Assembly: GCA_934182615.1 (NCBI GenBank)
Contig: CAKPRO010000001.1
Coordinates: 78,197 to 142,196 of the forward strand
Direction: 5' to 3'
Origin: an uncultured Bacilli bacterium
Lineage (GTDB): Bacteria > Bacillota_I > Bacilli_A > RF39 > UBA660
Length of the DNA stretch: 64,000 bases
The position numbers were made by a program, and so were the translations under genes. Of the stretch, positions 3,390 through 52,763 are shown one piece after another (position 1 is the stretch's first letter; each line of letters begins with the position of its first letter). The notes below the pieces were generated by a model that searched no databases, was not told where the DNA came from, and was given only the letters and a program-made list of their open reading frames with translations.

Positions 3390-4925
3390 TTATAACATAA
3401 CCCCAGTACCAATACCAATAGGAATACCAATAATATAGAAAGCTAATATAATAATAAGCCATAAAACAGTAAACGCTATTGCATAAGGTACCATCAAACT
3501 CATAGCATCCGCTATCGTAATAACATCATTCTTCCTCTTATTATAAATATGTAAGAATCCAATCAAAATAACAAAATAACTAAATATCGGAGTAAGACCC
3601 TTAACACTACTATCAGCAGCCCTAAATACCGCTTCAGCAAACTCTGGAGTCATTGAACTTTGCATAAACATCGGTACAATAACCGGTGACATCATAGCCC
3701 ACTTAGTCGATGCCATTGGTACAAAGAAAGTAGAAATAGCCACAACTAAGAAAGTAACAACCACTAGTAATAGACCAGTAAATTGAAATTTATTAATAAG
3801 TTCAGATAAAGAAGCCACAATAAATAACCCAATATTAGTTTCTTTAAATATCAAACAAAACTGAGCCGCAAAGAAAATAAGAACAAGAAGAGAAGCAACA
3901 TCTTTGAGATAATAACTCATACCATCTACCAAATCCCTATTATCATCAATAGTACCAACTCTAATACCATATATTAAAGAACTAAAGATAAGTAAAAATG
4001 AGAATATCGTAACCGAACCCTGATAGAAGTAAGAACCTTCTCCAAATAACATATCAACATATTTACTTTGATTCAAATCAAGTAATAATCCCGAAAAAGG
4101 AAGACCCTTAATAATACAATAAACAAGTAATAACAAAGCAATAAAAGTAGCCCCTAACGAAAGAACAACACCCTTTCTCTCTTTTTTACTAGGAACACCA
4201 TCTTGTGAAGGCTCTTCTTCATCAAAATAATACTTACCAAGTTTAGGAATAATAAATTTTTCCGTAACAACCATACCAACATAAGCCACTAATATCATAC
4301 TAATAGCGGTAAAAATAATATTACCATATAAATTAACATTATATGCCGAATCAAGTACCTTACTAGCCTTACCAGAATATAAAGTAAGCATTGAATCAAG
4401 CCTATTAATAATAACATTAGCTCCATACCCAAAAGTAATACCCGAAAAAGCCGCACAAATACCCGCTGACGGATGTCTACCAAGATTCATAAATAATATC
4501 GCAGCAAGAGGAATAAGTATTACATATCCAACTTCATAAAACATTGAAAATATAATACCTAGTAATACCACAAGAAAAGTCAAAAACTTTCTAGGTACCT
4601 TCTCACTAATCATCTTAAATAAAGAATTAAGAAATCCTGACTTATAAGCAACCCCTACTCCAAGTAAACCAATAATCAAATTACCTAAAGGAGCAAAATT
4701 AAGAAAATTATTAAGCATATTACTAATCAAATATTGAAGACCAGTCCTATTAAACAAATTATTAATATTAACAACCTGACTATTCAAATCACCAGTAGCC
4801 TCATTAACAACATAATAACTAGTCTCTAAATTAAGAATACTACCAATACTACTAATAATCATAATACCAATAGTAAGTATCAAAAATACCAATGCTGGAT
4901 GAAGTCTAATCTTTTTCTTTTTCAT
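3390..4925 (-). CDS. AbgT family transporter (p-aminobenzoyl-glutamate transporter-like)
   Basis: 511-aa polytopic membrane protein. Motifs NFAPLGNLIIGLLG and FRAADSSV match the AbgT family. Confidence 0.8.
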   Translation of the reverse strand: MKKKKIRLHPALVFLILTIGIMIISSIGSILNLETSYYVVNEATGDLNSQVVNINNLFNRTGLQYLISNMLNNFLNFAPLGNLIIGLLGVGVAYKSGFLNSLFKMISEKVPRKFLTFLVVLLGIIFSMFYEVGYVILIPLAAILFMNLGRHPSAGICAAFSGITFGYGANVIINRLDSMLTLYSGKASKVLDSAYNVNLYGNIIFTAISMILVAYVGMVVTEKFIIPKLGKYYFDEEEPSQDGVPSKKERKGVVLSLGATFIALLLLVYCIIKGLPFSGLLLDLNQSKYVDMLFGEGSYFYQGSVTIFSFLLIFSSLIYGIRVGTIDDNRDLVDGMSYYLKDVASLLVLIFFAAQFCLIFKETNIGLFIVASLSELINKFQFTGLLLVVVTFLVVAISTFFVPMASTKWAMMSPVIVPMFMQSSMTPEFAEAVFRAADSSVKGLTPIFSYFVILIGFLHIYNKRKNDVITIADAMSLMVPYAIAFTVLWLIIILAFYIIGIPIGIGTGVML

Positions 4926-5256: not shown

Positions 5257-6600
5257 GTGAAAAAAGAAGTAAATAATACAAGAAAAAAAAGAAAACTAAA
5301 TTTTCAAAAAATATTTAATTTAGTAAGTGCTATGTTTATCTTAGCCTGCTGTATATTCTATGGAACAAGATTCCTAAAACTATATATAGCAAACAACAAA
5401 GTAGAAAAAATAACTGTACTCGCTGACAATATCAAAGATAACAATAAAGATAGTGAATCATTTAAACAAATAAATGAAGACTATTACTTTACTGGAGAAG
5501 TAGAAAATAACTATGTAAAATACTCTAATATATTATGGAGAATAGTAAAAGTAAACTCTGACAAATCAGTAACCCTAGTATCAGATAATGCTTTAACATC
5601 ATTAAATCCTGGTACAGGAACAACATATGAAAAAACATCCATAAATAAATGGTTAAATAAAGGAGAAGAAGAAAACACAGGTATTCTAGAAACAAATCTA
5701 AATAATACCTCAAAGTATCTAACATTCTCAAAAACATGTAAAGATACAGTAACCGATACCAAAAACATTACATGTAAAGATAAATTAGAAGATACTTACA
5801 TAACCGCCCCATCAGTATATGACTATGTAAATACCGGTGGTAATAAAGGCTTTATGAATAATAATGAATACTTCTATTTAACCAATATAGATAAAGATAA
5901 AAAATTAATGTATATCGATTCAACAGGTAAAACAAATAGTACTGATGATTCAGATATCCTAGGAGTAAAAGCCATTATAACATTAAAAAATACCCTAACA
6001 TTAAAAGAAGGAAATGGTACCAAAGATAACCCATATACCTTTGAAGATAAAGAAGGATTATTAGGAAGTTATGTAAAACTAGGTAATGATACATGGAGAA
6101 TCTATAGTATAGAAGATAATACTGTAAAATTATCATTAGATAACTATCTAAAAGTAAATAATAAAGAAGTAAAATATAAATATTCAAATAACGGCTACTA
6201 CCACAACGATACAAAACAAGGTACCTTAGCAGAATATCTAAATAAAACATATCTAAATACCTTAAGTTATAAAGATAAAATAAAAGAAAATAAATTCGCT
6301 AATGGTATCTATAGTAGTACCACTAACTACGATTATAATAAAGTATTAACAACTACTGTTGATACCAAAGTATCAGTATTAAGTATTGGTAACATAATAT
6401 TAAATAATAACAATACTAACTACTTCCTATCAACAGGAGTATCAAAAGATAGTAACCTAGTATATGTAATGCAAGATGATTATAAAGTATATACCAAAGT
6501 ATCCACTACTACATTAAAAATAGTTCCAACAATAGCACTAGATAAATCACTACTAACAAAAGGAGACGGAACAATAGAAAGTCCATACGAGGTAGAATAA
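5257..6600 (+). CDS. Hypothetical N-terminally anchored secreted protein (T/N/K-rich, no recognised domain)
   Basis: GTG start followed by an MKKEVNN... basic region and a hydrophobic anchor. Composition is low-complexity N/T/K/Y-rich. It is the first gene of a + strand envelope cluster. Confidence 0.5.
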   Translation: MKKEVNNTRKKRKLNFQKIFNLVSAMFILACCIFYGTRFLKLYIANNKVEKITVLADNIKDNNKDSESFKQINEDYYFTGEVENNYVKYSNILWRIVKVNSDKSVTLVSDNALTSLNPGTGTTYEKTSINKWLNKGEEENTGILETNLNNTSKYLTFSKTCKDTVTDTKNITCKDKLEDTYITAPSVYDYVNTGGNKGFMNNNEYFYLTNIDKDKKLMYIDSTGKTNSTDDSDILGVKAIITLKNTLTLKEGNGTKDNPYTFEDKEGLLGSYVKLGNDTWRIYSIEDNTVKLSLDNYLKVNNKEVKYKYSNNGYYHNDTKQGTLAEYLNKTYLNTLSYKDKIKENKFANGIYSSTTNYDYNKVLTTTVDTKVSVLSIGNIILNNNNTNYFLSTGVSKDSNLVYVMQDDYKVYTKVSTTTLKIVPTIALDKSLLTKGDGTIESPYEVE

Positions 6601-16805: not shown

Positions 16806-17798
16806 TTATTGTCTTTCCAACATATATAAATTATCTAATAAAATACCAGTACCTTCTGCTACACAAGTAAGTGGAGATTCCGCTGTAAATACAGGAACCT
16901 TAAGTTCTTGACTAAGAACTTGCGAAAAACCATCTACTAAAGCACCACCACCAGTAAGTACTATACCTTTATCAATAATATCCGCAGAAAGTTCTGGAGG
17001 AGTCTGTTCAAGTATACCTTTTACCGCATGAATAATAGTATATACACTTTCTCTAAGAGCTTCTTCTATTTCATCACTAGTAAGAGTAATAGTATGTGGA
17101 AGACCAGTAACTAAATCTCTTCCTCTAACCTCCATTTTTTCATTCCTTGATCCAGGAAATACTGTACCAATAGTAATTTTAATATCTTCAGCAGTTCTTT
17201 CACCAACTAAAAGTTTATATTTATCTTTAATATATTTTACAATATCATTATCAAAAGCATTACCTGCTATTCTAATAGAAGCACTATTAACAATGCCACC
17301 TAAAGATAAAATAGCAATATCAGTAGTACCACCACCAATATCAATAACCATATTACCACTAGGTTTAGAAATATCCATTCCTGCACCAACAGCAGCCACC
17401 TTAGGCTCCTCTTCAAGAAAAACCTTTTTAGCTCCTGTTCTCTCAGCAGCTTCCTTAATAGCATTCTTTTCTACTTGTGTAATATTAGAAGGACAGCAAA
17501 TAAGAATTCTAGGTCTAGAGAAAAAACTCTTACCATTAACTTTTTTAATAAAGTAATTAAGCATAACTTCTGTAGTATCATAATCCGCTATTACACCATC
17601 TTTCATAGGTTTAATAGCCTTAACTTTCCCCGGAGTTCTACCAAGCATCTCATGAGCTTCAGTACCAACAGCCAAAGGTTTCTTCGTTTCAGCATCAATA
17701 GCAACTACAGATGGTTCATTTAAAACAATGCCCTGACCCTTAATATAGATAAGTACATTAGCAGTTCCTAAGTCAATACCAATATCTTTGTTAAACAT
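16806..17798 (-). CDS. mbl: Rod-shape-determining actin homolog MreB/Mbl
   Basis: 330 aa with DLGTANVLIY and DIGGGTTD actin-fold motifs. Its position next to spoIIID matches mbl. Confidence 0.9.
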   Translation of the reverse strand: MFNKDIGIDLGTANVLIYIKGQGIVLNEPSVVAIDAETKKPLAVGTEAHEMLGRTPGKVKAIKPMKDGVIADYDTTEVMLNYFIKKVNGKSFFSRPRILICCPSNITQVEKNAIKEAAERTGAKKVFLEEEPKVAAVGAGMDISKPSGNMVIDIGGGTTDIAILSLGGIVNSASIRIAGNAFDNDIVKYIKDKYKLLVGERTAEDIKITIGTVFPGSRNEKMEVRGRDLVTGLPHTITLTSDEIEEALRESVYTIIHAVKGILEQTPPELSADIIDKGIVLTGGGALVDGFSQVLSQELKVPVFTAESPLTCVAEGTGILLDNLYMLERQ

Positions 17799-17854
17799 AA
17801 AATCACCATCCTTATTTCCATTTTACCACAATTTAACAGTTTTTTATACAAATA

Positions 17855-18121
17855 TTACACTTTTCTTTTCAAAAACTTTCTTTTTGTCGACTCTCCTCCC
17901 TTAATATGCTTAATATCAGCATGAAATTCCATAATACTTGACACTTTTTCATACAAATTTTTGTCAATCAAAGAAAGTCTATATCGCATATCATTATGTA
18001 CAGTACTCTTAGAAACACCAAATACTAAAGAAGCATCCCTAACCGTTTTATCATTAATAATAATATACTTTGCCTCGTCAATTACTCTATTATATATTCT
18101 ATTATTCATATATTCACCCAT
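17855..18121 (-). CDS. spoIIID: Stage III sporulation protein D (mother-cell transcription factor)
   Basis: 88 aa with VFGVSKSTVHNDM HTH and a GGESTKRKF C-terminus, typical of SpoIIID. Confidence 0.85.
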   Translation of the reverse strand: MGEYMNNRIYNRVIDEAKYIIINDKTVRDASLVFGVSKSTVHNDMRYRLSLIDKNLYEKVSSIMEFHADIKHIKGGESTKRKFLKRKV

Positions 18122-18165
18122 AGTATTATATTAAATAAAGAATATATTTATGAAAAAAGATAAAA

Positions 18166-18858
18166 CTATAATTCATCTAAAGATTTATTATAGAATTCTT
18201 CAGGATTAACAATTTTACCTTTATGATATAATTCAAAATGTAAATGATTACCCATATCTTTCTCTATATTAGATAATCCACTTTTAGCAATAATTTGTCC
18301 CTGAATAACTTTATCATCCTTACTAACAATAACATCAGATAAACTTTGATATACACTAATTAGATCATTATTATGTCTAATCTCAATAGTAGTACCCATA
18401 ATATCATTATTTTCAACCGAAATAACAGTACCATCTAAAATACTAATAACATCAAAAACATTCTCACTAGCATAATCAACACCCGAATTTTGCATATAAG
18501 TATTCTCATAGAATATAATAGCTTTCTCCTGATTATCAGTAGAATCCTTATAATCATAGAAAGATTTAGCTATCTTAACATCATCACTAAGATATGGCTT
18601 AACTATAGTATTATTAGTACTAACTACTGGAATATCCCTATTAGTCCCCTCAGTAATCTCACCATCAACATATTTAATATTATTATCTTTCTTAGAAAAC
18701 AATAAATTATTAGCAAAATTACCTACAAAAAACATACTAAATAAAAATGCCAATACCAAAGTACCATATATTACAGGTACAAAAAATGATTTAATTCTTC
18801 TATTTCTCATCTTATCACCTCTAATATAATTGTTTCCTAAAACCAAAATAATATACAT
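18166..18858 (-). CDS. spoIIQ: M23 (LytM) peptidase-domain membrane protein, SpoIIQ-like by position
   Basis: N-terminal TM plus an M23 domain with an intact HLHFELYHKGKIVNP motif. The spoIID - M23 - spoIIID - mreB order matches clostridial spoIIQ loci. Confidence 0.55.
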   Translation of the reverse strand: MYIILVLGNNYIRGDKMRNRRIKSFFVPVIYGTLVLAFLFSMFFVGNFANNLLFSKKDNNIKYVDGEITEGTNRDIPVVSTNNTIVKPYLSDDVKIAKSFYDYKDSTDNQEKAIIFYENTYMQNSGVDYASENVFDVISILDGTVISVENNDIMGTTIEIRHNNDLISVYQSLSDVIVSKDDKVIQGQIIAKSGLSNIEKDMGNHLHFELYHKGKIVNPEEFYNKSLDEL

Positions 18859-19784
18859 TAATTTTCCATTTTTTTAATCTCAGTACCAGAATAATAATAT
18901 TTCAAAATATCTTTATAACTATAACCTTCTTGTGCCATACCAAGAGCACCATATTGACTCATACCAACACCATGACCATATCCAATAGTAGAAATAATAA
19001 TCTTATCACCTTCTTTTTTTAAAGAAAAATCAAGCGATCTAAGTCCTAATTTATCATATAAACTTTTCCCAGTAAATTCCTTACCATTAATACTAAGCGT
19101 AACAATTCTATTAGTACTACTCCTCTTAAGAACTTTAAAATCAAAAGAATCACTATAAGAAAGACCTAACTTTTTATAAAAAGAATTAATATCCATTGAA
19201 GTATTACTTCTAAATGCCGAACTAGTCTTTTCATCCCAAGAAGATTTAACACTTTTTAAATATGGCAAATCAACATCAAAAACTAAAGAAGCCGTTTCAG
19301 TATACCCATTACTAGTAGAAAAAAACAAAGCATCAATTACTTCACCATCATATTCTAAATATTCCATACTCGTTTCATTAACCACTTCTCTAAGTTTATT
19401 AATATTATTAATATAATCATCACCCCAAGCATCTTTTAAATAATTATCATCTAAATAAACCTGATTCATAATAGAATCAACAACATCATAATCATTATCT
19501 TTATTATACTCCATTCTTTTAAAAGCATAACTTCTAGCCGCCACTGCTTGAGCTTTAAAAGCCTCTTTTTCAAAATAAATAGGCATTTCACCCGCTAAAA
19601 CACCAACAATATATTCTTCAAAAGGAATAGAATCAATATTTCCCGTACTCATTCTTTTAACTCTAATAATAGTATTGGACATATATTTAATTTTTATTTC
19701 TTCTTTTTCATCTATTTTATAAAAATTAACAATCAAAAAAGGAATAAAAATAACAATAACAGTAATAAAAATAATCTTTTTCAT
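18858..19784 (-). CDS. spoIID: Stage II sporulation protein D (SpoIID/LytB-type lytic transglycosylase)
   Basis: 308 aa with a signal anchor and a SpoIID/LytB domain (AQAVAARSYA, GYGHGVGMSQYGA). Confidence 0.85.
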   Translation of the reverse strand: MKKIIFITVIVIFIPFLIVNFYKIDEKEEIKIKYMSNTIIRVKRMSTGNIDSIPFEEYIVGVLAGEMPIYFEKEAFKAQAVAARSYAFKRMEYNKDNDYDVVDSIMNQVYLDDNYLKDAWGDDYINNINKLREVVNETSMEYLEYDGEVIDALFFSTSNGYTETASLVFDVDLPYLKSVKSSWDEKTSSAFRSNTSMDINSFYKKLGLSYSDSFDFKVLKRSSTNRIVTLSINGKEFTGKSLYDKLGLRSLDFSLKKEGDKIIISTIGYGHGVGMSQYGALGMAQEGYSYKDILKYYYSGTEIKKMEN

Positions 19785-19848: not shown

Positions 19849-20562
19849 TTATCTACCATTTCTTAACATTTCAAATTTAACATTAGAAGTAAGTCCTATA
19901 ATATCAGGATCCTTTTCATTAATAAAGGCCAAATCAAATAAAGTACCTCTATTAAAACCAACATTACCACCTCTATCAAGAACAATTCCTATAAAATCAT
20001 CCATACCAGGAACATTACTAATTCTAAAAATAGAATAGAATGGAAATGATGGATCTGCTGCTAAAATTCTAACAGTACCAAATTCATTATCATCATAATA
20101 CATAGATTCATTTAAATTATGACCTGCAGCTGTATAACCAGAACAACCATAACAATTAGCACCATACCCAGTTAAATTACCAACTACAGTATCAAGTACC
20201 TCTCTATCATAAAATAAACCTGAAGAACTAGGAGTAGTCGGAGTCTCAGGAACAACCGGTGTCGTATCAACAACAGGTTCTTCAGTAACTTCCTCTTTAA
20301 CCTCTTCTTCTTTTATTTCTTCTTTTTCAGTATCATCATCCAAAGGAACAACAACACTAGTATCAACAGAACTAAGAAGCAATTCTTCACTTTTAAATAA
20401 AGTCATTGTCTTATCTGCCATTTTGTCAAAATTATTATTACCAATAGTTATATTTTGATTATTAGCACCACCTGAAAAAACAAGTGTCAAAAATAAAGTA
20501 ACTACTAATAACTGTGAAGAAATAGTTATAACCTTAACAGTTACATTCTTCATTAATCTCAC
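19849..20562 (-). CDS. 3D-domain (MltA-like) cell-wall protein, YabE-like position
   Basis: Signal peptide, a Thr/Pro/Glu-rich linker, then a C-terminal 3D-type domain (YGCSGYTAAGHNL, DRGGNVGFNRGTLFD). It lies downstream of tatD, as yabE does in Bacillus. Confidence 0.6.
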   Translation of the reverse strand: MRLMKNVTVKVITISSQLLVVTLFLTLVFSGGANNQNITIGNNNFDKMADKTMTLFKSEELLLSSVDTSVVVPLDDDTEKEEIKEEEVKEEVTEEPVVDTTPVVPETPTTPSSSGLFYDREVLDTVVGNLTGYGANCYGCSGYTAAGHNLNESMYYDDNEFGTVRILAADPSFPFYSIFRISNVPGMDDFIGIVLDRGGNVGFNRGTLFDLAFINEKDPDIIGLTSNVKFEMLRNGR

Positions 20563-21678: not shown

Positions 21679-23208
21679 TTAATTCTCAATTCTTTGAAAT
21701 AAAACTTCAGCCTTATTAACCCTAGTACCTGACTTATATCCACCAAACTCACTAGTACTATCATAAGAAATATTATCAGTATTAATTTGATTAAATATCT
21801 TCTCACAAGTATCAGGAATAAAAGCTTGTAATAATACAGTACAAATTCTAATACACTCAACTAGATTATATAACACAGTAGCAAGTCTATCTTTTTTAGA
21901 TTCATCTTTAACAAGAACCCAAGGCATAGTCTCATCAATATATTTATTACAATCTCTAAGTACATCAAATATACTAGCAATAGCTTTAGAAACTTCTAAT
22001 CCATTCATATAATCTTCTACTACATCTTTTAATCCTATAGCCTCTTCAATCAATTTATTATCAATCTCTTCATTAACTTTAGTATTAGTAACAACACCAT
22101 CAAAATATTTATTAGCCATACCAATAGTTCTATTAACCAAATTACCAAGTACATTAGCAAGATCTCCATTAGTTCTATTAATTAAAGCTTCTTCAGAAAA
22201 ATTACCATCACTACCAAATGGAACCTCTCTCAAAACAAAATATCTAACAGCATCAACACCATAAGCATCAATATACTCTCTAGGATCTTTATAATTACCT
22301 AAACTCTTAGATATTTTACCACCATTAATAACTAACCATCCATGTCCAAATACCTTGTCAGGTAAAGGTAAATCAAGAGCCATCAACATAATAGGCCAAA
22401 TAATAGTATGAAATCTAACTATTTCTTTACCTACTATATGTAAATTAGCAGGAAAATATCTCTTAAATAGTGAATCATCTTCACTTAAATATCCTACAGC
22501 AGACAAATAATTAGCTAAAGCATCAATCCATACATAAACAACATGTTTAGGATCAAAAGTTACAGGAATACCCCAATCAAAACTAGTTCTAGACACACAT
22601 AAATCTTCAAGTCCAGGTTTAATAAAATTATTAAGCATTTCATTCTTTCTAGATTCAGGTTCAATAAAAGTAGGATGTTCCTCATAAAACTTAACTAATC
22701 TATCTTGATATTTAGAAAGTTTAAAGAAATAAGCCTCTTCAGATACCTCATTAACTTCTCTACCACAATCAGGACATTTACCATCTACAAGTTGTGTCTC
22801 AGTCCAAAAAGATTCACAAGGAGTACAATATAATCCCTTATATTCTCCTTTATAAATATCCCCTTGATTATATAGTTTTTCAAATATTCTTTGTACACAA
22901 ACAACATGCTCTGGATCAGTAGTTCTAATAAATTTATCATAACTAATATTTAAACTCTTCCATAAATCTTTAGAATTAACAACAATCTTATCAACATACT
23001 CTTGAGGAGTAATACCAGCCTCTTCAGCCTTCTTTTGTATTTTTAATCCATGTTCGTCAGTACCAGTTAAATAAAATACATCATAACCAGTAAGTCTCTT
23101 ATATCTAGCAATAGCATCCGCTATTATAGTAGTATAACAATGTCCAATATGAAAATTAGCACTTGGATAATATATAGGTGTAGTAACATAAAATTTTTCT
23201 TTATTCAT
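21679..23208 (-). CDS. metG: Methionine--tRNA ligase (short form lacking the C-terminal tRNA-binding domain)
   Basis: 509 aa with HIGH (ANFHIGHCY), KMSKS (KISKSLGN) and a CPDCG zinc knuckle. Confidence 0.95.
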   Translation of the reverse strand: MNKEKFYVTTPIYYPSANFHIGHCYTTIIADAIARYKRLTGYDVFYLTGTDEHGLKIQKKAEEAGITPQEYVDKIVVNSKDLWKSLNISYDKFIRTTDPEHVVCVQRIFEKLYNQGDIYKGEYKGLYCTPCESFWTETQLVDGKCPDCGREVNEVSEEAYFFKLSKYQDRLVKFYEEHPTFIEPESRKNEMLNNFIKPGLEDLCVSRTSFDWGIPVTFDPKHVVYVWIDALANYLSAVGYLSEDDSLFKRYFPANLHIVGKEIVRFHTIIWPIMLMALDLPLPDKVFGHGWLVINGGKISKSLGNYKDPREYIDAYGVDAVRYFVLREVPFGSDGNFSEEALINRTNGDLANVLGNLVNRTIGMANKYFDGVVTNTKVNEEIDNKLIEEAIGLKDVVEDYMNGLEVSKAIASIFDVLRDCNKYIDETMPWVLVKDESKKDRLATVLYNLVECIRICTVLLQAFIPDTCEKIFNQINTDNISYDSTSEFGGYKSGTRVNKAEVLFQRIEN

Positions 23209-23702
23209 TATAAATCATCTCCCTTATTATTAGTACTACCAATTCCACCTTCTCTTAAATCAGTAGTATTATCATCATCAGTAATTAAATATGGTATAAA
23301 TATACCTTGTACAAATCTATCTCCCTTTTTAATCTCAATAACCTCATCCCCTTCATTCTCTAAACATACAAAAATATGACCACCATTACTAGAATTACCA
23401 TAGTAATCAGCATCAATAATACCAACCTGATTACACATCCGTACATTATACTTAAATCCCAAACTACTTCTAATAAATATACCAAGAAATTCATTATTAT
23501 TCATTATCACCCTAATACCAGTAGGAATAACCTTTCTCTCCCCTGGTTTCAAAGTAACAGAAATAACACTATAAAAATCATAACCAGCGCTACTAATAGT
23601 ACCCCTTTTAGGTAAAATAACATCATCATAATTACCATTAGGTATATCTTTAATAAAAGTATCTCTATCAATAATTTCAAATTTTCTCATATAAACCTCC
23701 AA
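23208..23702 (-). CDS. dut: dUTP diphosphatase (dUTPase/dCTP deaminase fold)
   Basis: 164 aa with GYDF, IIDADYYG and REGGIGSTN motifs. Its stop overlaps the metG start. Confidence 0.65.
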   Translation of the reverse strand: MEVYMRKFEIIDRDTFIKDIPNGNYDDVILPKRGTISSAGYDFYSVISVTLKPGERKVIPTGIRVIMNNNEFLGIFIRSSLGFKYNVRMCNQVGIIDADYYGNSSNGGHIFVCLENEGDEVIEIKKGDRFVQGIFIPYLITDDDNTTDLREGGIGSTNNKGDDL

Positions 23703-23703
23703 T

Positions 23704-23920
23704 AAAAAAATAAGATAGCCAAAGGACGAATAAATATCCGCGGTACCACCTTATTTTATGTAACATACACTCATTAAGTTATAACGTAACAACCGTCTAT
23801 ACCTATTAGATATAAAAGCTCCAGAACCATTTATAATAACTTTCATTATCTATTTCCACCAACCATAGACTCTCTATAAACTAATATTATTACTCTTTCC
23901 TTCATCGCATTACGAAATTA
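23704..23920 (-). promoter_or_regulatory. T-box riboswitch leader (probable Met specifier) with terminator/antiterminator, controlling dut-metG
   Basis: Minus strand carries the canonical T-box sequence AATAAGGTGGTACCGCGG (plus 23735-23752), then a terminator helix and a U-run ending at the dut start. Stem I candidate has a GA motif (GCGATGAAGG), an AGAGA box and an AAUGA specifier-loop candidate. The leader is preceded upstream by a TTGTAA-17-TGgTAAAAT promoter. Confidence 0.6.
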
Positions 23921-24080: not shown

Positions 24081-24611
24081 TTAATCAACAAATTGTTTAC
24101 TAAGTAATTTAGACAAAACAATACACATCTTATCCTCAACATCACTGATAGGAACATCAGTAGAAATAAGAATAACACTACCTATAGCATCACCATTATC
24201 AACAATAGAAGAAAAAGTATAATATCCAACCTCCTCTTCATCTTTAATAATCTGAAAAGATTTCTTCTGTTTCTCAAAAAAATTATCCCTTCTCTCAATA
24301 GACCTCTCAGTAAACTCATTAATTTCCTTATCCAAATACTTCTTCTTTAAAGGACCAGCAGCCGCTATAACCTTATCCCTATCAGTAACAATAATATTAT
24401 GTTTAATAATCTGATTAAAAGCCTCAACATAATCAATAGAAACATTCTTTAAACTTTCAATCTGAGAATACTTCTTCAAAATAATAGAATCATTTTCCAA
24501 ATATATCTCTAAACTCTCACCATTTTTAATTCTAAGATTCTTTCTAATCTCTTTTGGAATAACAATTCTTCCCAACTCATCAATCCTTCTAATTATACCA
24601 GTAGTTTTCAT
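24081..24611 (-). CDS. spoVT: Stage V sporulation protein T (AbrB-type swapped-hairpin N-domain plus GAF)
   Basis: MKTTGIIRRIDELGRIVIPKEIRKNLRI AbrB/SpoVT N-terminus; 176 aa. Lies next to mfd as in Bacillus. Confidence 0.85.
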   Translation of the reverse strand: MKTTGIIRRIDELGRIVIPKEIRKNLRIKNGESLEIYLENDSIILKKYSQIESLKNVSIDYVEAFNQIIKHNIIVTDRDKVIAAAGPLKKKYLDKEINEFTERSIERRDNFFEKQKKSFQIIKDEEEVGYYTFSSIVDNGDAIGSVILISTDVPISDVEDKMCIVLSKLLSKQFVD

Positions 24612-40826: not shown

Positions 40827-41927
40827 TCAAATTATTTCCCGGGAAATAATTTTACCATTTTCTATTCTATAAACATTAGCTTTATTTCTCACATTTTTAT
40901 CAATATTTTCAATATCCGTAGTAGTAACTATCGTTTGAATATCATTATCTAAATATTTAATTACCTTATTTCTCTTATCAATATCTAATTCACTAAATAT
41001 ATCATCCAAAAGTAAAATAGGCGTATCAGACAAAACATCCGTAAATAATTTAACTTCTGCTAACTTAAGAGCAAGTACAGCACTCCTTATTTGTCCCTGT
41101 GAACCATATAAAGATAAATTCTTTCCATTCAAATCAAAATAAAAATCATCTCTATTAGGTCCAATAAAAGTAATCTTATACTGAATTTCTCTTGATAAAT
41201 TACTTTTAAGTTTATCTTTAAATAAATTATTATCTAAATTACTAACATTAGAAGTATATATCATCTTAAGTCCTTCTAATCCTGTAATAGAACTAAATAT
41301 ATCATCTATATATTTATTAACTAAGTCTACATATTTCCTTCTAAAATTATAAATAACTATTGATAAACCAATATATTTATCATTAAGAATATCTAAATAA
41401 TTCATATCACTCTCTTTATTAATATTAATAATCTTCAAAAATTCATTTCTTTGACGTAAAACTAAATTATAATTATTTAAATTTGCTAAATAAATCTTAT
41501 TAATTTGACTAATTTGAATATTAAAGTATTTTCTTCTACAAGATGGACTATCTTTAAATATTCTAATACTATCACTACTAAAAAGAATAACATTCATTTT
41601 AGAAATATAGTCACTTAATTTTTTGATCTCTTTTTTATTTATCTTAACAACCTTACCATTCTCATTAATTAATAGTTCAAGTTCATCATAAGAACCATTA
41701 TAATCAACAATTCCTTTAATCATTGAATATCTACTATTAAAATTAATAAGATTCTTATCACTAATAGATAAAAAAGACTTCGTAACAGCAAGTACATAAA
41801 TAGATTCTAGTAAATTAGTTTTTCCTTGAGCATTATCTCCTATTATAATATTTAAATTATTATTAAATTCTAATAAAATATCATCATAATTACGATAATT
41901 TTTTAAATAAATTTTTTGTAATTTCAA
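40827..41927 (-). CDS. recF: DNA replication and repair protein RecF
   Basis: GDNAQGKTNLLE Walker A and an ABC signature; 366 aa. The last eight codons (KIISREII) and the TGA stop are supplied by a Noc-binding palindrome. Confidence 0.95.
   Translation of the reverse strand: MKLQKIYLKNYRNYDDILLEFNNNLNIIIGDNAQGKTNLLESIYVLAVTKSFLSISDKNLINFNSRYSMIKGIVDYNGSYDELELLINENGKVVKINKKEIKKLSDYISKMNVILFSSDSIRIFKDSPSCRRKYFNIQISQINKIYLANLNNYNLVLRQRNEFLKIININKESDMNYLDILNDKYIGLSIVIYNFRRKYVDLVNKYIDDIFSSITGLEGLKMIYTSNVSNLDNNLFKDKLKSNLSREIQYKITFIGPNRDDFYFDLNGKNLSLYGSQGQIRSAVLALKLAEVKLFTDVLSDTPILLLDDIFSELDIDKRNKVIKYLDNDIQTIVTTTDIENIDKNVRNKANVYRIENGKIISREII
40833..40848. promoter_or_regulatory. Noc-binding-site palindrome forming the recF 3' end (part of a 29-bp repeat identical to 53707-53735)
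   Basis: CAAATTATTTCCCGGGAAATAATTTTACC at 40827-40855 is identical to 53707-53735. Confidence 0.7.
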
Positions 41928-42053
41928 TATAAAGTCATTTTCTTGCCCATATTTTCACCTTTACTAATCTCATGTACCCCTATACATATATAATTATACC
42001 ATATTTCAATAAAAATTAAAAGAAAAAACACATATTTTCTATGTATTTTTTCC

Positions 42054-42509
42054 TTATTTTTCAACGGTTTTTCTCATAATTCCATTTAAATATTTTTCTA
42101 TCTTTATACACTTCGTAATTTGATTATCAATCGTAGTATAAGGTACCTTAATATTCATCTCTTTACCATTATCAAAATATATTTTTGTACCATTACTTTC
42201 TTTAACATATCTAGTAATATTATTATAAGCAAGCCATATACATTTCTTAGAACTAGGAGTACATGTAGGAAAGAAAATAATCATATTATAAGAAGATACA
42301 ATAATAGGAGTCTTAATATAATAATTAAAAATATCAATAACAAATTGCCTCTGAATATTATAAGAATTACCATAAAAATTACACCCATATTTAAGTAATT
42401 TAAGACAATCAATACTCAAATAAAAATCCTTATTCTTCTCCACAACATAAGTACCATATCCATTAGAAGTAAAGCACAAAACATCATCAGTAAGAATATA
42501 ATTTCTCAT
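42054..42509 (-). CDS. comK: ComK family protein (competence transcription factor family)
   Basis: Alignable to B. subtilis ComK across the conserved core: CNFYGNSY / CRFFGSSY; KTPIIVSSYNMIIFFPT / KPPIMVDPSNQIFLFPT; FDNGKEMNIKVPY / FSNGKTMELPISY. The start is assigned to the ATG at 42509, which has a GGAGAGGGGGA RBS. Confidence 0.7.
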   Translation of the reverse strand: MRNYILTDDVLCFTSNGYGTYVVEKNKDFYLSIDCLKLLKYGCNFYGNSYNIQRQFVIDIFNYYIKTPIIVSSYNMIIFFPTCTPSSKKCIWLAYNNITRYVKESNGTKIYFDNGKEMNIKVPYTTIDNQITKCIKIEKYLNGIMRKTVEK

Positions 42510-42707
42510 AAAATCCCCCTCTCCACATATAAAAATATGTACCATGTATTAAAGCATATAATCATGTCGAATTTTATCAAAATATGTCGTAAATTATCAA
42601 AAATTTTCCTTTTCTTAACATTTCTATCATCAAAATTACTGTTTTATCACAAAAAAAATAGATAAAAGAATCAAATCCCTTATCTATTAAACAAATATAA
42701 ATCAAAA

Positions 42708-43823
42708 TTAGCAAGTTTTAATAGGTAAAACAAGTTGTACCAAAGAATCATCTTCATTACTCTTAATAACAATAGGAGAACTATCATTATTCATACATAA
42801 AACAATCTTTTCTTTATTAAAACTCTTAATAGCATCTAACATAAACTTAGAACTAAACGAAATTTCAATATTCTTATCATTTTCTACATTAATTTTTTCC
42901 TCTACTTTACCAATTTCTGGACTATTTGAAGAAATCATAAGTTCATTACCATTTAAAGATAACTTAATAGTATTCTTTTCTCTATCAGAAGTAAGTAAAC
43001 TAGCTCTATCAATCATATTATATAAATCATTAAAAGAACACTCAAGTAATATATTAAAATTCTTAGGAATAATATCACTAGTAGTAGGATAAGTACCAGA
43101 AAGTAATCTAGATAAAAATACAATATTACCATATTTAAACAAAACCTTATTACTAAATAAATGTAATTCTAAAGATTCTTCATCATTATCAAGCATTTTA
43201 GTAAGTTCTACTAAGTTCTTACCAGGAATAACAATATTAATATCACTTTCATCAACTTTATCAATAGCTACTAATTTTCTAGCAAGTCTATATGAATCAG
43301 TAGCAATAACATCTAATTCACCATTATTAATTCTAAAATTAATACCTGTAAGAAGTGGTCTAGTTTCACTTTGTGAAATAGCAAATACTGTTTGATTAAT
43401 AATATCCTTAAATACTCCATTGTTAATAACAATAGGCTCCTTAGTTTCATCTAAATCTAAATTAGGAAATTCATTAGGATTAATACCATTTAAATTAAAC
43501 TCTGTATTATCTGTACTAACAATCATCTTATATCCATCAATAACCTCAATAGATATATCTGTATTAGGAAGTTTTCTTATTATTTCAACAATATACTTAC
43601 CTCCTATTACTATACTACCTGTTTCTTCTAAACTTGTTAACTTATCTTTTGGTATAAAAGATCTAATTGAGACATCAGTATCACTTGCATATAAATATAA
43701 TCCATCATCCTTTAAATCAAACTTAATACCTGTTAATATTGGAATCAAGTTTTTAGTAGATATTGCTCTTGCTGTATTATTTAAACTTTCTAATAATATT
43801 TCTTTCTTTACGACTAATTTCAT
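42708..43823 (-). CDS. dnaN: DNA polymerase III beta sliding clamp
   Basis: 371-374 aa three-domain clamp. Start is probably the ATG at 43823 (MKLVVKKEILL), which has a GAGGA RBS. Confidence 0.95.
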   Translation of the reverse strand: MKLVVKKEILLESLNNTARAISTKNLIPILTGIKFDLKDDGLYLYASDTDVSIRSFIPKDKLTSLEETGSIVIGGKYIVEIIRKLPNTDISIEVIDGYKMIVSTDNTEFNLNGINPNEFPNLDLDETKEPIVINNGVFKDIINQTVFAISQSETRPLLTGINFRINNGELDVIATDSYRLARKLVAIDKVDESDINIVIPGKNLVELTKMLDNDEESLELHLFSNKVLFKYGNIVFLSRLLSGTYPTTSDIIPKNFNILLECSFNDLYNMIDRASLLTSDREKNTIKLSLNGNELMISSNSPEIGKVEEKINVENDKNIEISFSSKFMLDAIKSFNKEKIVLCMNNDSSPIVIKSNEDDSLVQLVLPIKTC

Positions 43824-43832
43824 TTTTATCAT

Positions 43833-43974
43833 CCTCTTTCTTTTATTATTTATTTATTATATTATTATTATTATGCTGTGGATATTGTGGAAAACTCACC
43901 TTTACCCTTGTTTTATATACTTTTACTTATCCACAATACCTGTTGATAACTTCAAACTTTTCCACTATCAACAA
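43833..43974. other. oriC part 2 (dnaA-dnaN spacer): DnaA-box cluster plus AT-rich unwinding element
   Basis: Perfect TTATCCACA at 43927-43935. Variants: ATATCCACA (43878-43886, reverse), TTTTCCACA (43887-43895, reverse), TTATCAACA (43941-43949, reverse), CTATCAACA (43965-43973). A pure A/T run at 43840-43875 lies next to the dnaN start. Confidence 0.8.
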
Positions 43975-45439: not shown

Positions 45440-45580
45440 CAAGTTATCCACAACTTATCAACAATATAATACCATATAAAATAAGACTTTAAAAGACTTT
45501 TCCACAATTTTTGTCAATTTTTGTTGTCAACAGTCAACAGCTTTACTTTTCCACAGCCCTGTGGATATTGTGGATAAATA
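45440..45580. other. oriC part 1 (upstream of dnaA): DnaA-box cluster
   Basis: TTATCCACA at 45445-45453 and 45569-45577 (reverse); TTATCAACA at 45455-45463; TTTTCCACA at 45498-45506 and 45547-45555; ATATCCACA at 45560-45568 (reverse). Confidence 0.8.
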
Positions 45581-45609
45581 AAAAAAGCCTTGATTTATAA
45601 GGCTTTATT
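45581..45609 (-). terminator. Intrinsic terminator of the HerA-like gene
   Basis: AAGCCTT-gatttat-AAGGCTT hairpin followed by a U-run on the minus strand. Confidence 0.5.
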
Positions 45610-47370
45610 CTAGTTACTTTTCCACTGTATCATCCACTTGTCAAATATTTTAGCATTTGTACTCTGTGGTTCTGGATTAGGAAGTTGCATTTTTACAATA
45701 AGTGGAATCTTCATCATCTTACCAAATGCAACACAAGTACCAGATTGAAGTGATTTTTGTTTTTCAATAACATCACTACTAATATTAGGAACCATCTTTT
45801 CAATATACTCTAAATCACTAGGATGGTTAATTTTAAATATTAAGAAATTACTACACTGTGATAAAACAGTTTCAGATAGTTCAGTAGGTCTTTGCGTAAT
45901 TAAATCAAGACATATACCAAATTTTCTACCTTCTTTAGCAATTCTTTCAAATATATTATATCCAAGAATATTAATATCATTATCCTTCTGAACATATCTA
46001 TGAGCCTCCTCTAGCATAAGATGCATTGGCATACTACCTCTAGTAGGAAGCTTTTTAGCAAAGTTAAAGATAATTCTTGCATATACTTTAACAAGAGCTT
46101 TAGCAAATCTATCATCAATATTTTCTAATACAAAATTAATAATTTGTGCTCTCTTATTATTACTCACTAATATTAAATCAGAAATAAATTCATTTACAGT
46201 AATAAACTTATCACATTCAAAATACTTTCTCATAGAACTATTAGCAATAGTATGTAATTTAACTTTTAAAGCTGTAGCTTCAGCATAAGATTTCTCATTA
46301 AGAAGAAGTCCTTCAGATATTAATGTAAAGTTAAGAGCTACTTCTAAATCGTCAATTGTAAAGAAAGTAGGTACATAATCCTCATTCCATTTAGTTTCAT
46401 TATCGACAAACTTCTTAATATATTCAGTAATAAGAATTCTTTCTACAAATTGCCCTTGACTATCAATTTCAAAACATTTTCTAAAAGTTCTAGTATAACC
46501 AACACCAGGTACTTCAACATCTAAGTTAAGTTCAGGTGTATGACAATCAGTCAAAATAGAAAATATTTGGTCTCTAATTCTAGCAGATACTTGATTAGAA
46601 TACATAACTGATACAATAGCGGATGCAATTAAATGGTTTTTATATCTATTAGATTCCTCATCATTTTTAGCAAATAAAGAAACATAAGCAAGCATCTTTT
46701 CAATAATCATAATTTGTGAATAATCAGTTACATCAAGTATATTAGCATAATCATCAACAGAAAGTAACCATAAAGGTAATTTAAGAATATTAACTCCCTT
46801 ATCAGTATCAGTGCTAAACATCTTGTAATTAAAATTATAATTATAACTAGAAATACTACTAAAAGCACTATCATATTCATCAGTATTATTAAATATAAAA
46901 ATAATACTATTAAAAGGAATATAATTAGGCATAGTAAATAAATTTTGTACTAATCTAGCAACACCATAAGTTTTACCAGAACCAGTATTACCAAAAATAG
47001 CACTATGATTGCTCCACATATCATCAATATTAATTTTAATAGGGCTATCGTTATACAAAGGAGAAAGTCCTAGCATCATTGCAGTATTGTCATTATACCC
47101 AGTAAGTTCTGCTAATTCATCAGCATTAATAATTCTAATTTTAGAATTAATACTAGGTTTTCTAATAATACCATCATAAAATTTGCTTCCATGAAATTCT
47201 CCTAAAAAACTAATTTTAGCCTCTCCGTTCATAATTTCTTCTACTTCACCTAATATTTTTTTATTATTTTCTTCAAAAACAACATTTAAGTTAAGTAAAT
47301 CATCAGTAATAACATTATCAATTTTAACAATAGCATAATTTTTACTGATAGCAATAATTTCTTTAAACAT
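45610..47370 (-). CDS. HerA/FtsK-like (DUF87) P-loop ATPase with N-terminal HAS-barrel-like region, solitary
   Basis: Walker A AIFGNTGSGKTYG, Walker B LMLEEAH, and the GICLDLITQRP arginine-finger segment typical of HerA-type ATPases. Start assigned to the ATG at 47370, which has an AAGAAGGG RBS. Confidence 0.7.
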   Translation of the reverse strand: MFKEIIAISKNYAIVKIDNVITDDLLNLNVVFEENNKKILGEVEEIMNGEAKISFLGEFHGSKFYDGIIRKPSINSKIRIINADELAELTGYNDNTAMMLGLSPLYNDSPIKINIDDMWSNHSAIFGNTGSGKTYGVARLVQNLFTMPNYIPFNSIIFIFNNTDEYDSAFSSISSYNYNFNYKMFSTDTDKGVNILKLPLWLLSVDDYANILDVTDYSQIMIIEKMLAYVSLFAKNDEESNRYKNHLIASAIVSVMYSNQVSARIRDQIFSILTDCHTPELNLDVEVPGVGYTRTFRKCFEIDSQGQFVERILITEYIKKFVDNETKWNEDYVPTFFTIDDLEVALNFTLISEGLLLNEKSYAEATALKVKLHTIANSSMRKYFECDKFITVNEFISDLILVSNNKRAQIINFVLENIDDRFAKALVKVYARIIFNFAKKLPTRGSMPMHLMLEEAHRYVQKDNDINILGYNIFERIAKEGRKFGICLDLITQRPTELSETVLSQCSNFLIFKINHPSDLEYIEKMVPNISSDVIEKQKSLQSGTCVAFGKMMKIPLIVKMQLPNPEPQSTNAKIFDKWMIQWKSN

Positions 47371-47451
47371 AATCGCCCTTCTTTCTATTCTAAGTAAATT
47401 ATACCAAATAAATATCAAAAAATAAATAACTTTTTAATAATTTTTTAGAGT

Positions 47452-51220: not shown

Positions 51221-52363
51221 ATGCATGTAATAGGAGTAATAGCGGAATATAATCCTTTTCACAAAGGACATTTATATCAAATAAATAAAATAAAAGAAAA
51301 ATATCCCAATAGTCTTTTAGTAGTGGTTACTTCTTCTTCTTTTACACAAAGAGGAGATATCTCACTACTAAATAAATGGGATAAAACAAAAATAGCTTTA
51401 GATAATAATGTCGATTTAGTCGTAGAGTTACCATTTGTCTATTCAACTCAGTCTTCTGATCTTTTTGCAGAAGGTGCAATTAGTATTCTAAATGCCTTAA
51501 AAATAGATACTCTTGTTTTTGGTACAGAAAGAGATAATATTAGCGACTTAGAACTCCTAGCAGATATTCAAATAAATAATATAGAGTATCAAGACAAAGT
51601 AAAAGAATATCTAAGTCAAGGATTAAACTATGCAACATCTACTAATAAAGCCCTTGAAGATTTAACTAATATAAAAGTAGATACTCCTAATGACTTATTA
51701 GCTTTGTCTTATATAAAACAAATAAAAAAACATAACTACCCAATAAAATATATAAATATAAAAAGAACAACATCATATCACGGTTCAGAAGTATTAGATA
51801 ACATAACATCAGCATCAAATATCAGAAAACTATATCTATCAGATAATACCATAGATAATCTAATACCATTTGATAAAAAATATCTTTATAAAATAGATAT
51901 GAATAAGTATTATGACATACTAAAATACAAAATATTAGCAGAAGATACAAGTATCAGCAAATATCAAACAGTAGATGAAGGCATTGAATCAAGAATAATA
52001 AAAAGTATTTATATATCAAATAACTATGAAAAATTAATTCAAAATATTAAAACCAAAAGATATACTTATAATAAAATATCTAGAATGCTTCTTCATATAC
52101 TCGTAGGCTTTACCAAAGAAGATGCTAGTAATATATCTATAGATTACATAAGAATATTAGGCTTTAATAAAAGAGGTCAAGAATATTTAAACAAAATAAA
52201 AAAAGAATTATCAATACCTTTAGTTATAGGATATAAAAAAAATATATCTAAAGTATTAGATATAGAATTAAAGGCTACAAAAATATATGCCTTAGTTACA
52301 GATGTGTCTCTTATTAAAAGAGAATATCAAATAAAACCAATAATTAAAGAAAATAATGACTAA
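51221..52363 (+). CDS. tmcAL: tRNA(Met) cytidine acetate ligase (TmcAL/YlbM nucleotidyltransferase family)
   Basis: GVIAEYNPFHKGHLYQ HIGH-like motif. Start assigned to the ATG at 51221, which has a GGTGAT RBS. Confidence 0.8.
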   Translation: MHVIGVIAEYNPFHKGHLYQINKIKEKYPNSLLVVVTSSSFTQRGDISLLNKWDKTKIALDNNVDLVVELPFVYSTQSSDLFAEGAISILNALKIDTLVFGTERDNISDLELLADIQINNIEYQDKVKEYLSQGLNYATSTNKALEDLTNIKVDTPNDLLALSYIKQIKKHNYPIKYINIKRTTSYHGSEVLDNITSASNIRKLYLSDNTIDNLIPFDKKYLYKIDMNKYYDILKYKILAEDTSISKYQTVDEGIESRIIKSIYISNNYEKLIQNIKTKRYTYNKISRMLLHILVGFTKEDASNISIDYIRILGFNKRGQEYLNKIKKELSIPLVIGYKKNISKVLDIELKATKIYALVTDVSLIKREYQIKPIIKENND

Positions 52364-52763
52364 AAATGTCTTTTATTTTCCCACTAAATAGAGATTCAAT
52401 AATCTCTTTTTTTTCATCTTTATCCTTAGATAAAAGCAAACTAGCCGTTAAAGTAATCTTTTCATTATTACCATTCTTATATTTATCATATTCTTCCCTT
52501 ACATTAATATATTTAGCATCCTCATCACTGTCAATATCATTCATAGTAAATATATAAGCCTTAAATCTATTACTATTCTTATTATCATAAATATTAAGAA
52601 TAATATTGTCTCCTAATATTTTATATTGAATATAGACATACTCTTCCTTTTTAATATCAAAATCATAACCAAAAATATCATTTACAAAGTCATTAAGTAA
52701 CCCCTCATTCATTACATCAATTAAAGATAATCTAAATATTTCGTCATTCATAAAATTCACCAC
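52344..52763 (-). CDS. Hypothetical protein (139 aa, acidic, no recognised domain)
   Basis: ORF with a plausible start; overlaps the tmcAL 3' end convergently by 20 nt. Confidence 0.3.
   Translation of the reverse strand: MVNFMNDEIFRLSLIDVMNEGLLNDFVNDIFGYDFDIKKEEYVYIQYKILGDNIILNIYDNKNSNRFKAYIFTMNDIDSDEDAKYINVREEYDKYKNGNNEKITLTASLLLSKDKDEKKEIIESLFSGKIKDIFSHYFL

Follow-up and report, generated by a model that had tools for sequence, protein, structure and literature searches.

ComK is the textbook bistable switch for competence and is known almost only from cultured Bacillales. In Bacillus subtilis, Spo0A~P binds the comK promoter directly (PMC3297582), and the ComK protein carries a C-terminal MecA/ClpCP degron, FMLYPKEERT...GERY (PMC8138137). 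Here, we analysed a 64,000-nucleotide stretch of contig CAKPRO010000001.1 from an uncultured Bacilli bacterium (hereafter the window), in which an initial annotation, made from the sequence alone, had placed a comK-family gene between dnaN and recF. We find that this gene belongs to the ComK family, that its position is the rule in a broad subfamily of short ComK proteins, and that its conserved upstream region carries three candidate binding sites for Spo0A.

The gene and its translation start are as follows.
42054–42509, minus strand: coding sequence of the short-form ComK-family protein (151 aa; coordinates include the stop codon), characterized with Pfam, BLASTP, the ratio of non-synonymous to synonymous substitution rates (dN/dS) and an AlphaFold2 model.
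42514–42524, minus strand: ribosome-binding site (RBS) GGAGAGGGGGA, ending 4 nt before the ATG at 42509.

The same open reading frame (ORF) can also be read from an ATG at 42545, giving a protein of 163 aa. When the upstream regions of 12 related genomes were aligned, the RBS and the ATG at 42509 were kept in relatives, with the RBS core GAAAGGGGG(A/G) present in all of them, whereas the ATG at 42545, which falls within the promoter, was not; the correct product is therefore that of 151 aa. Both the strong RBS and the three peptides quoted in the initial annotation (CNFYGNSY, KTPIIVSSYNMIIFFPT and FDNGKEMNIKVPY) were recovered. The profile search that it had called for matched Pfam ComK (PF06338) over profile positions 11–145 of 152 with 93.7 bits (E = 1.2e-26), well above the cut-off of 22.3, and bore out the family assignment. 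ComK was the sole family above threshold in the Pfam scan, which gave no LytTR match. Moreover, BLASTP of the window protein against B. subtilis ComK, a query verified as exact COMK_BACSU by exact-sequence look-up, gave 28% identity over residues 22–131 (E = 9e-21), and 17 columns are invariant in a protein alignment that includes B. subtilis ComK.

The exact 151-aa protein is named 'competence protein ComK [Bacilli bacterium]' at NCBI, indicating that the assignment is right and already public as an annotation; what is new is the fixed genomic address and the conserved promoter, the protein family itself being known. The assembly collection has 2,731 indexed blocks with this protein, the largest contig being 1.41 Mb long, and the nearest genome, at 99% identity, is the gut metagenome-assembled genome 'Firmicutes bacterium CAG:321'. 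Purifying selection acts on the gene (dN/dS 0.05–0.10 in close pairs), which places it far beyond a chance ORF, although it evolves much faster than its neighbours. It is a genuine short ComK-family gene, predicted from its family to encode a DNA-binding transcription factor. Two other leads were discarded: a 'Bacteroidales' match (locus L013, 26% identity) was a TolB/OmpA-like protein sharing only the word YFDNGKEM, and phage and plasmid collections, consulted for a mobile origin of comK, gave only matches of ~30% identity to Listeria and Bacillus comK.

In B. subtilis, the genes follow the order dnaN-yaaA-recF-yaaB-gyrB-gyrA (gene table, PMC7317962). The window has the same origin-region order, except that comK stands in the yaaA position, as initially annotated, and that yaaB is missing. 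The gaps in the dnaN-comK-recF-gyrB interval are 162, 126 and 19 bp; no S4/yaaA-like or yaaB-like ORF was found in the dnaN-recF-gyrB interval, and neither the 162-bp nor the 126-bp spacer has room for any other ORF. The comK product itself does not correspond to RlbA/YaaA, which is an S4 RNA-binding domain protein of ~70 aa.

This placement had been described as unusual, a view that we did not retain. The order dnaA-dnaN-comK-recF-gyrB-gyrA was kept in all 12 species-level genomes from the genome scan, and dnaN-comK-recF in every metagenome locus with enough flank. As to whether relatives have yaaA/rlbA at this position, all informative related loci carry comK between dnaN and recF. In loci L091–L093, for example, the order is the same and ComK is 33% identical, against 71–73% for DnaA and DnaN. 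Using HMMER, we collected 624 ComK-family clusters (clustered at 50% identity), and most of the 150 representatives closest to the window protein are 145–160 aa long. The contigs of nine divergent short representatives (24–42% identity) were inspected; one was too short to judge (P0240), and in the eight others comK abuts dnaN and/or recF, with an extra gene between dnaN and comK in one of them (P0173) and a canonical rpmH-rnpA-yidC group divergent from dnaA in another (P0266). The one long form sampled (191 aa) adjoins yhjD, a Bacillus-like context. Judged from gene order, dnaN-comK-recF is the defining synteny of a broad short-ComK subfamily. Literature searches on the lineage (CAG:321; RFN20 with competence) and on ComK with dnaN/recF returned nothing relevant and, as far as these searches reached, this address of short ComK has not been described. 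The dnaA-dnaN-recF-gyrBA block is among the most stable bacterial gene orders, and the simplest account of the position beside dnaN is that comK was inserted there long ago and has been kept in place by that stability.

The block upstream of comK is better conserved than the ComK protein itself, and contains three elements.
42565–42591, minus strand: three head-to-tail heptamers with a 10-bp period (TACGACA, TTTGATA and TTCGACA in the sense direction; family consensus three times TTCGACA).
42548–42558, minus strand: extended −10-like element TATGCTTTAAT (TRTG-n-TTTAAT), with the T, G and TTTAAT columns invariant or nearly so in the 12-genome upstream alignment.
42525–42540, minus strand: perfect palindrome ACATATTTTTATATGT, lying downstream of the −10 element and ahead of the RBS.

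Read on the opposite strand, the heptamer TTCGACA is TGTCGAA, the '0A box' of Spo0A. Bacillus and Clostridioides share this consensus, in which Spo0A contacts G2, C4 and G5, and footprinted Spo0A sites often consist of boxes spaced 3 bp apart (PMC3485338, PMC2731898). The repeats at 42565–42591 are likewise tandem 0A-like boxes with a 3-bp spacer, and in boxes 1 and 3 there is little or no variation at the positions equivalent to G2, C4 and G5. At ≤3 mismatches, the triple pattern occurs once in the window and in none of 100 shuffles. The boxes are in phase and lie 11 nt from the TRTG-n-TTTAAT element in close and distant lineages alike; this layout recurs where ComK identity is 24–38% and the synonymous divergence (dS) is near 1, i.e., with synonymous sites near saturation, and the TG-n-TTTAAT core is largely kept across distant lineages. 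Given this fixed 11-nt distance, and given that the boxes travel with comK, we consider them to be a promoter element.

The TRTG-n-TTTAAT element is the putative comK promoter. It has no −35-like hexamer 17 bp upstream of TTTAAT, and TTTAAT has a T at the key −11 position, so that the core promoter looks activator-dependent, which favours activation over repression. The palindrome ACATATTTTTATATGT downstream of it may act as an operator or form a weak 5' hairpin; it was found in most close relatives and is absent in L006, L054, L091 and more distant lineages.

The transcription unit is delimited by the following features.
42708–43832, minus strand: dnaN, with three DNA_pol3_beta domains.
42651–42689, minus strand: intrinsic terminator after dnaN (13-bp stem and U8; −12.5 kcal/mol, z −4.5, matched by none of 200 shuffles).
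42018–42053, minus strand: intrinsic terminator after comK (16-bp stem and U-rich tail; −15.1 kcal/mol, z −5.9, matched by none of 200 shuffles).
41993–42003, minus strand: recF −10 element TATGGTATAAT, a TRTG-extended TATAAT whose TATAAT and TG are invariant in 13 lineages.

A similar hairpin with a T-run follows dnaN in relatives, and the T-run of the comK terminator is conserved in the recF-upstream alignment of the same 13 lineages. Since comK has terminators on both sides and recF has its own promoter, comK reads as monocistronic; on these predicted signals neither the dnaA-dnaN nor the recF-gyrBA operon includes it.

At its C-terminal end, the window protein, like all 70 aligned relatives, stops ~28 aa before the C-terminus of B. 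subtilis ComK. Because of this early end, the window protein and its relatives have no MecA/ClpCP degron, and the FMLYPK... segment of the B. subtilis-type circuit is missing from the window protein; a clpC-like gene lies within the window.

Taken as a whole, the locus is, with moderate confidence, best explained as a short ComK gene in an insulated unit, with a Spo0A-switched promoter and with competence targets by analogy. comK would be driven by a weak extended −10 promoter without a −35 hexamer, in which three phased Spo0A boxes would cover about −50 to −24. Upon nutrient limitation or entry into stationary phase, Spo0A~P would accumulate, bind the boxes and switch the promoter, activation being the favoured outcome; Spo0A is the candidate binding protein on the strength of the box sequence. 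Short ComK would then bind its target promoters, which by family analogy may be those of DNA-uptake and recombination genes, and its competence role is likewise suggested by that analogy. Control would thus be mainly transcriptional via Spo0A, rather than through MecA/ClpCP proteolysis and K-box autoregulation as in B. subtilis.

Several observations weigh against this explanation. No model in the NCBIfam scan claims the 151-aa protein, and neither the window scan nor the upstream alignment revealed a conserved canonical ComK box. A search limited to the 64-kb window found no spo0A, mecA or late competence genes, nor any DNA-uptake gene (the set sought included comG, comE, comF, comC, dprA, ssbB and recA). 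Within the promoter, conservation is far weaker in box 2 than in boxes 1 and 3, and a dimeric LytTR-like protein, e.g., ComK itself, could also be accommodated by two repeats at a distance of 20 bp. In two divergent lineages (L104 and L106/107), DnaA boxes replace the 0A boxes upstream of comK. Finally, where the boxes stand with respect to +1, and whether regulation is positive or negative, we infer from the sequence, and coding-strand TTCGACA boxes reaching ~−24 could equally fit repression.

The predicted fold bears on who binds the repeats. The AlphaFold2 model of the 151-aa protein has a predicted local distance difference test score of 93.7, and no solved ComK relative was found in the PDB by sequence search. 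The best PDB matches of this model in Foldseek are the LytTR domains of AgrA and ComE (E ~0.02, probability ~1), which are weak yet consistently top-ranked (template modelling score 0.4–0.6; 0.5–0.6 on target); the resemblance between ComK and LytTR has already been remarked on in a 2026 preprint (PMC13232269). B. subtilis ComK activates its own promoter (PMC3297582). The TTCGACA repeats might then be the autoregulatory site of short ComK, or that of another lineage-specific regulator, bound in a LytTR-like manner 20 bp apart and giving positive feedback. LytTR domains of AgrA and ComE bind direct repeats, and LytTR-controlled promoters likewise have repeats abutting a promoter without a −35 hexamer, as here; the better conservation of boxes 1 and 3 over box 2 would also fit. 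We nevertheless regard this as unlikely. The heptamer matches the 0A core exactly, down to the bases that Spo0A contacts (G2, C4 and G5) and the A/T flanks, and the 3-bp spacing is typical of Spo0A sites, whereas known ComK sites are AAAA-N5-TTTT and the Foldseek matches are weak. Moreover, the boxes are invariant while ComK diverges to ~25% identity, which fits the highly conserved DNA-binding domain of Spo0A better.

Other readings of the promoter signals were tried and rejected. The repeats are not DnaA boxes: those of this genome are canonical TTATCCACA clusters located elsewhere, and the comK boxes carry CGACA. The CtsR operator (RGTCAAA-NAN-RGTCAAA) matches neither the comK promoter nor the region upstream of clpC. 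A by-eye check against consensus sequences for sigma H, E, F, G and K promoters gave only a partial sigma-K −10 likeness, inside the palindrome that is absent in several lineages. Neither the comK palindrome nor the one at recF (see below) is a strong RNA hairpin, with only −4.4 and −3.9 kcal/mol (z −1.3 and −1.9), respectively.

The DnaA boxes upstream of comK in divergent lineages are TGTGGATAA and TTTTCCAC, at ~3960–4000 of L104 and ~1–60 of L106/L107. There are hints, from these motifs, of DnaA control of comK in those lineages.

As regards ComK boxes, one more element was examined just upstream of the 0A boxes.
42601–42644, no strand assigned: weak type-II ComK-box-like site (AAAC-N5-TTTT, N18, AAAA-N5-ATTT; 2 mismatches).

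Type-II matches number 2 in the window against 1.5 expected, and in the 12-genome alignment this site is not kept outside the same species; it is probably a chance occurrence. Canonical K-box patterns of types I and II occur in the window in numbers equal to chance.

The initial annotation had also called recF a classic ComK-regulated gene. In RNA-seq of sorted competent versus non-competent B. subtilis cells (reads per kilobase per million; PMC7317962 supplementary file 2), recF is flat and recA rises several-fold to more than ten-fold, the columns of that table being assigned by the behaviour of recA; on this evidence, recF does not qualify as a 'classic' target. In the window lineage, recF has its own promoter, with the consensus TRTGGTATAAT directly after the comK terminator, and no conserved AT-boxes upstream in the 13-lineage alignment. 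The remaining features of the recF start region are listed here.
41972–41987, minus strand: palindrome ATGTATAGGGGTACAT (core GTATAGGRGTAC), immediately downstream of the recF −10 and nearly invariant in 13 lineages.
41924–41950, minus strand: mini upstream ORF (uORF) MGKKMTLY*, with a Shine-Dalgarno sequence (SD) AAAGGTGA at 41955–41962 and a stop overlapping the recF TTG start (41925–41927).
40827–41927, minus strand: recF (Pfam SMC_N), with the RecF-like N-terminus MKLQKIYLKNYRNYD.

A version of the palindrome, GTATAGGAGTAC, is present in the distant locus L111 (~4510–4530; 25% ComK identity), and no Rfam match was obtained at this site. recF starts at the TTG (41927) without an SD of its own, and a uORF of 6–10 codons (MGKK...) with a good SD, ending on or beside the recF start, was found in nearly all relatives; this arrangement suggests translational coupling between the uORF and recF.

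Short ComK might not be primarily a competence regulator: its role could be tied to replication or repair status, e.g., through control of recF-gyrBA or other DNA-metabolism genes, with Spo0A or DnaA as input. Such a role would accommodate the dnaN-comK-recF linkage in every informative locus, down to 24% protein identity, as well as the DnaA boxes upstream of comK in two lineages, the conserved palindrome at the recF promoter, and the fact that late competence genes and conserved K-boxes were not seen in the 64-kb window. We find it quite unlikely, however. comK is insulated by terminators and the TRTGGTATAAT promoter of recF looks constitutive, the palindrome at that promoter resembles neither the 0A-like boxes nor K-boxes, and a gene inserted in the stable dnaA-dnaN-recF-gyrBA block can be kept passively. 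Moreover, competence control is the only experimentally known role of the ComK family.

The description of the region as an origin cluster was supported in one respect and not in another. Canonical DnaA-box clusters do flank dnaA, six boxes lying upstream of it (45444–45577) and four between dnaA and dnaN (43877–43949), the latter followed by an AT-rich run (43835–43870), in a bipartite oriC-like layout. At odds with this layout, neither the GC skew nor the orientation of the genes switches at dnaA (window 1–64000, especially 43800–64000; also loci L098/L099). On both sides of dnaA, the plus-strand skew is −0.23 to −0.54 for minus-strand genes and ~0 for plus-strand genes, and co-orientation continues for at least 10 kb past the right window edge. 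Upstream of dnaA, where the rpmH-rnpA-yidC-jag-parAB block usually stands, there are instead polC, polA, mutM and other genes, all oriented toward dnaA; in the distant relative L111, rpmH-rnpA-yidC is divergent from dnaA. Since neither skew nor orientation switches there, the active origin may not be at dnaA in the window lineage.

These results also bear on whether the 0A boxes serve replication control, Spo0A~P near oriC blocking initiation at the onset of sporulation with comK merely adjacent. Spo0A~P is known to bind 0A boxes at replication origins and to block initiation (PMC2731898), and ~1.3 kb separate the comK boxes from the DnaA-box/AT-rich region that dnaA and dnaN enclose. This reading appears highly improbable to us: the boxes lie outside the DnaA-box clusters, keep their fixed 11-nt distance to TRTG-n-TTTAAT and travel with comK in all lineages of the distant alignment, and the skew suggests that the dnaA region may not be an active origin.

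In the wider surroundings, the minus-strand order is a herA-like DUF87 ATPase gene, dnaA, dnaN, comK, recF, gyrB and gyrA, followed by the signal recognition particle RNA, tadA, dnaX, recR, holB, a yaaT-like gene, rsmI, pth, mfd and spoVT, further along by spoIID, an M23 peptidase gene, spoIIID and mbl, and finally by the clpC-like gene. The group of spoIID, the M23 peptidase gene (spoIIQ-like), spoIIID (88 aa, 17855–18121) and mbl, at 16806–19784, is arranged as in B. subtilis, and spoVT lies at 24081–24611, downstream of mfd. The presence of spoIID, spoIIID and spoVT agrees with the initial description of the host as a spore former.

Some side observations were made in the same region. The HerA-like DUF87 ATPase gene (602 aa, 45610–47418) lies directly upstream of dnaA with a terminator between them (45584–45606), and is kept at this position in most relatives of the window lineage. 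A T-box leader (113 bits, 23719–23914) precedes a dUTPase-family ORF (23208–23702), itself followed by metG (21679–23208); it is unusual for a T-box operon to open with a dUTPase-like gene. Three ORFs have no Pfam family at E ≤ 0.001, at 5257–6600 (447 aa), 19849–20562 (237 aa) and 52344–52763 (139 aa).

Overall, abundant gut bacteria that form spores and are uncultured carry a compact ComK without the MecA degron, under what looks like a minimal promoter made up of Spo0A boxes alone. Were the Spo0A link and the competence role true, the promoter would be a predictor of the timing of DNA uptake that can be read from the sequence, with a bearing on gene flow in the gut, and the locus would provide a natural stripped-down ComK circuit for comparison with the elaborate one of B. 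subtilis. At present, it stands as a well-supported annotation together with a testable regulatory hypothesis, and not as a new kind of system.

Among known systems, the closest by family is B. subtilis ComK (COMK_BACSU, 192 aa), with which the window protein shares the Pfam family and the motifs C-x3-G-x-SY, KxPI, FPT and CxW. The window protein is 41 aa shorter, lacking the C-terminal degron and ~8 N-terminal residues, and its gene lies between dnaN and recF instead of in the yhjD-type neighbourhood of the long form. The comK promoter of B. subtilis is bound directly by Spo0A~P (PMC3297582), and the window promoter has predicted 0A boxes; unlike the B. subtilis circuit, it is a simple arrangement of a triple 0A box and an extended −10, without a conserved K-box. 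By fold, the LytTR domains of AgrA and ComE are closest to the window ComK model, but these proteins share only 9–16% sequence identity with it, and the window protein has no receiver domain. Other Bacillales, e.g., B. cereus with ComK2, also have short ComK paralogues, with the ComK core and no C-terminal extension; the short ComK subfamily of the window is defined by its dnaN-comK-recF synteny and its putative 0A-box promoter.

By promoter, the nearest likeness is spoIIG, in which tandem 0A boxes overlap the misplaced −35 of a sigma-A promoter. Its activation by Spo0A goes through weak 0A boxes (cited in PMC3485338, PMC2731898). The candidate tandem 0A boxes of the window comK similarly overlap the −35 region of a promoter that has no correctly spaced −35 hexamer. 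In contrast to spoIIG, the window family has three boxes, two of them consensus in most lineages, reads TTCGACA on the coding strand, and has its proximal box reaching ~−24.

By position, the comparison is with comCDE of Streptococcus pneumoniae, which lies near dnaA/oriC, where gene dosage couples competence to replication stress (PMC5034851, PMC8394987). As with pneumococcal comCDE, the gene for a competence-family regulator is kept beside the dnaA region in the window, whereas comCDE comprises a LytTR response regulator with a peptide signal, and the window has a different regulator family and a GC skew that does not place the origin at dnaA. As very much a long shot, the short ComKs of uncultured low-GC gut Bacilli could be a hard-wired switch within the dnaA-dnaN-recF-gyrBA block, set by Spo0A~P (or by DnaA where its boxes occur) plus gene dosage, that would couple competence or another DNA programme to sporulation entry and replication, i.e., a counterpart of comCDE working without MecA/ClpCP.

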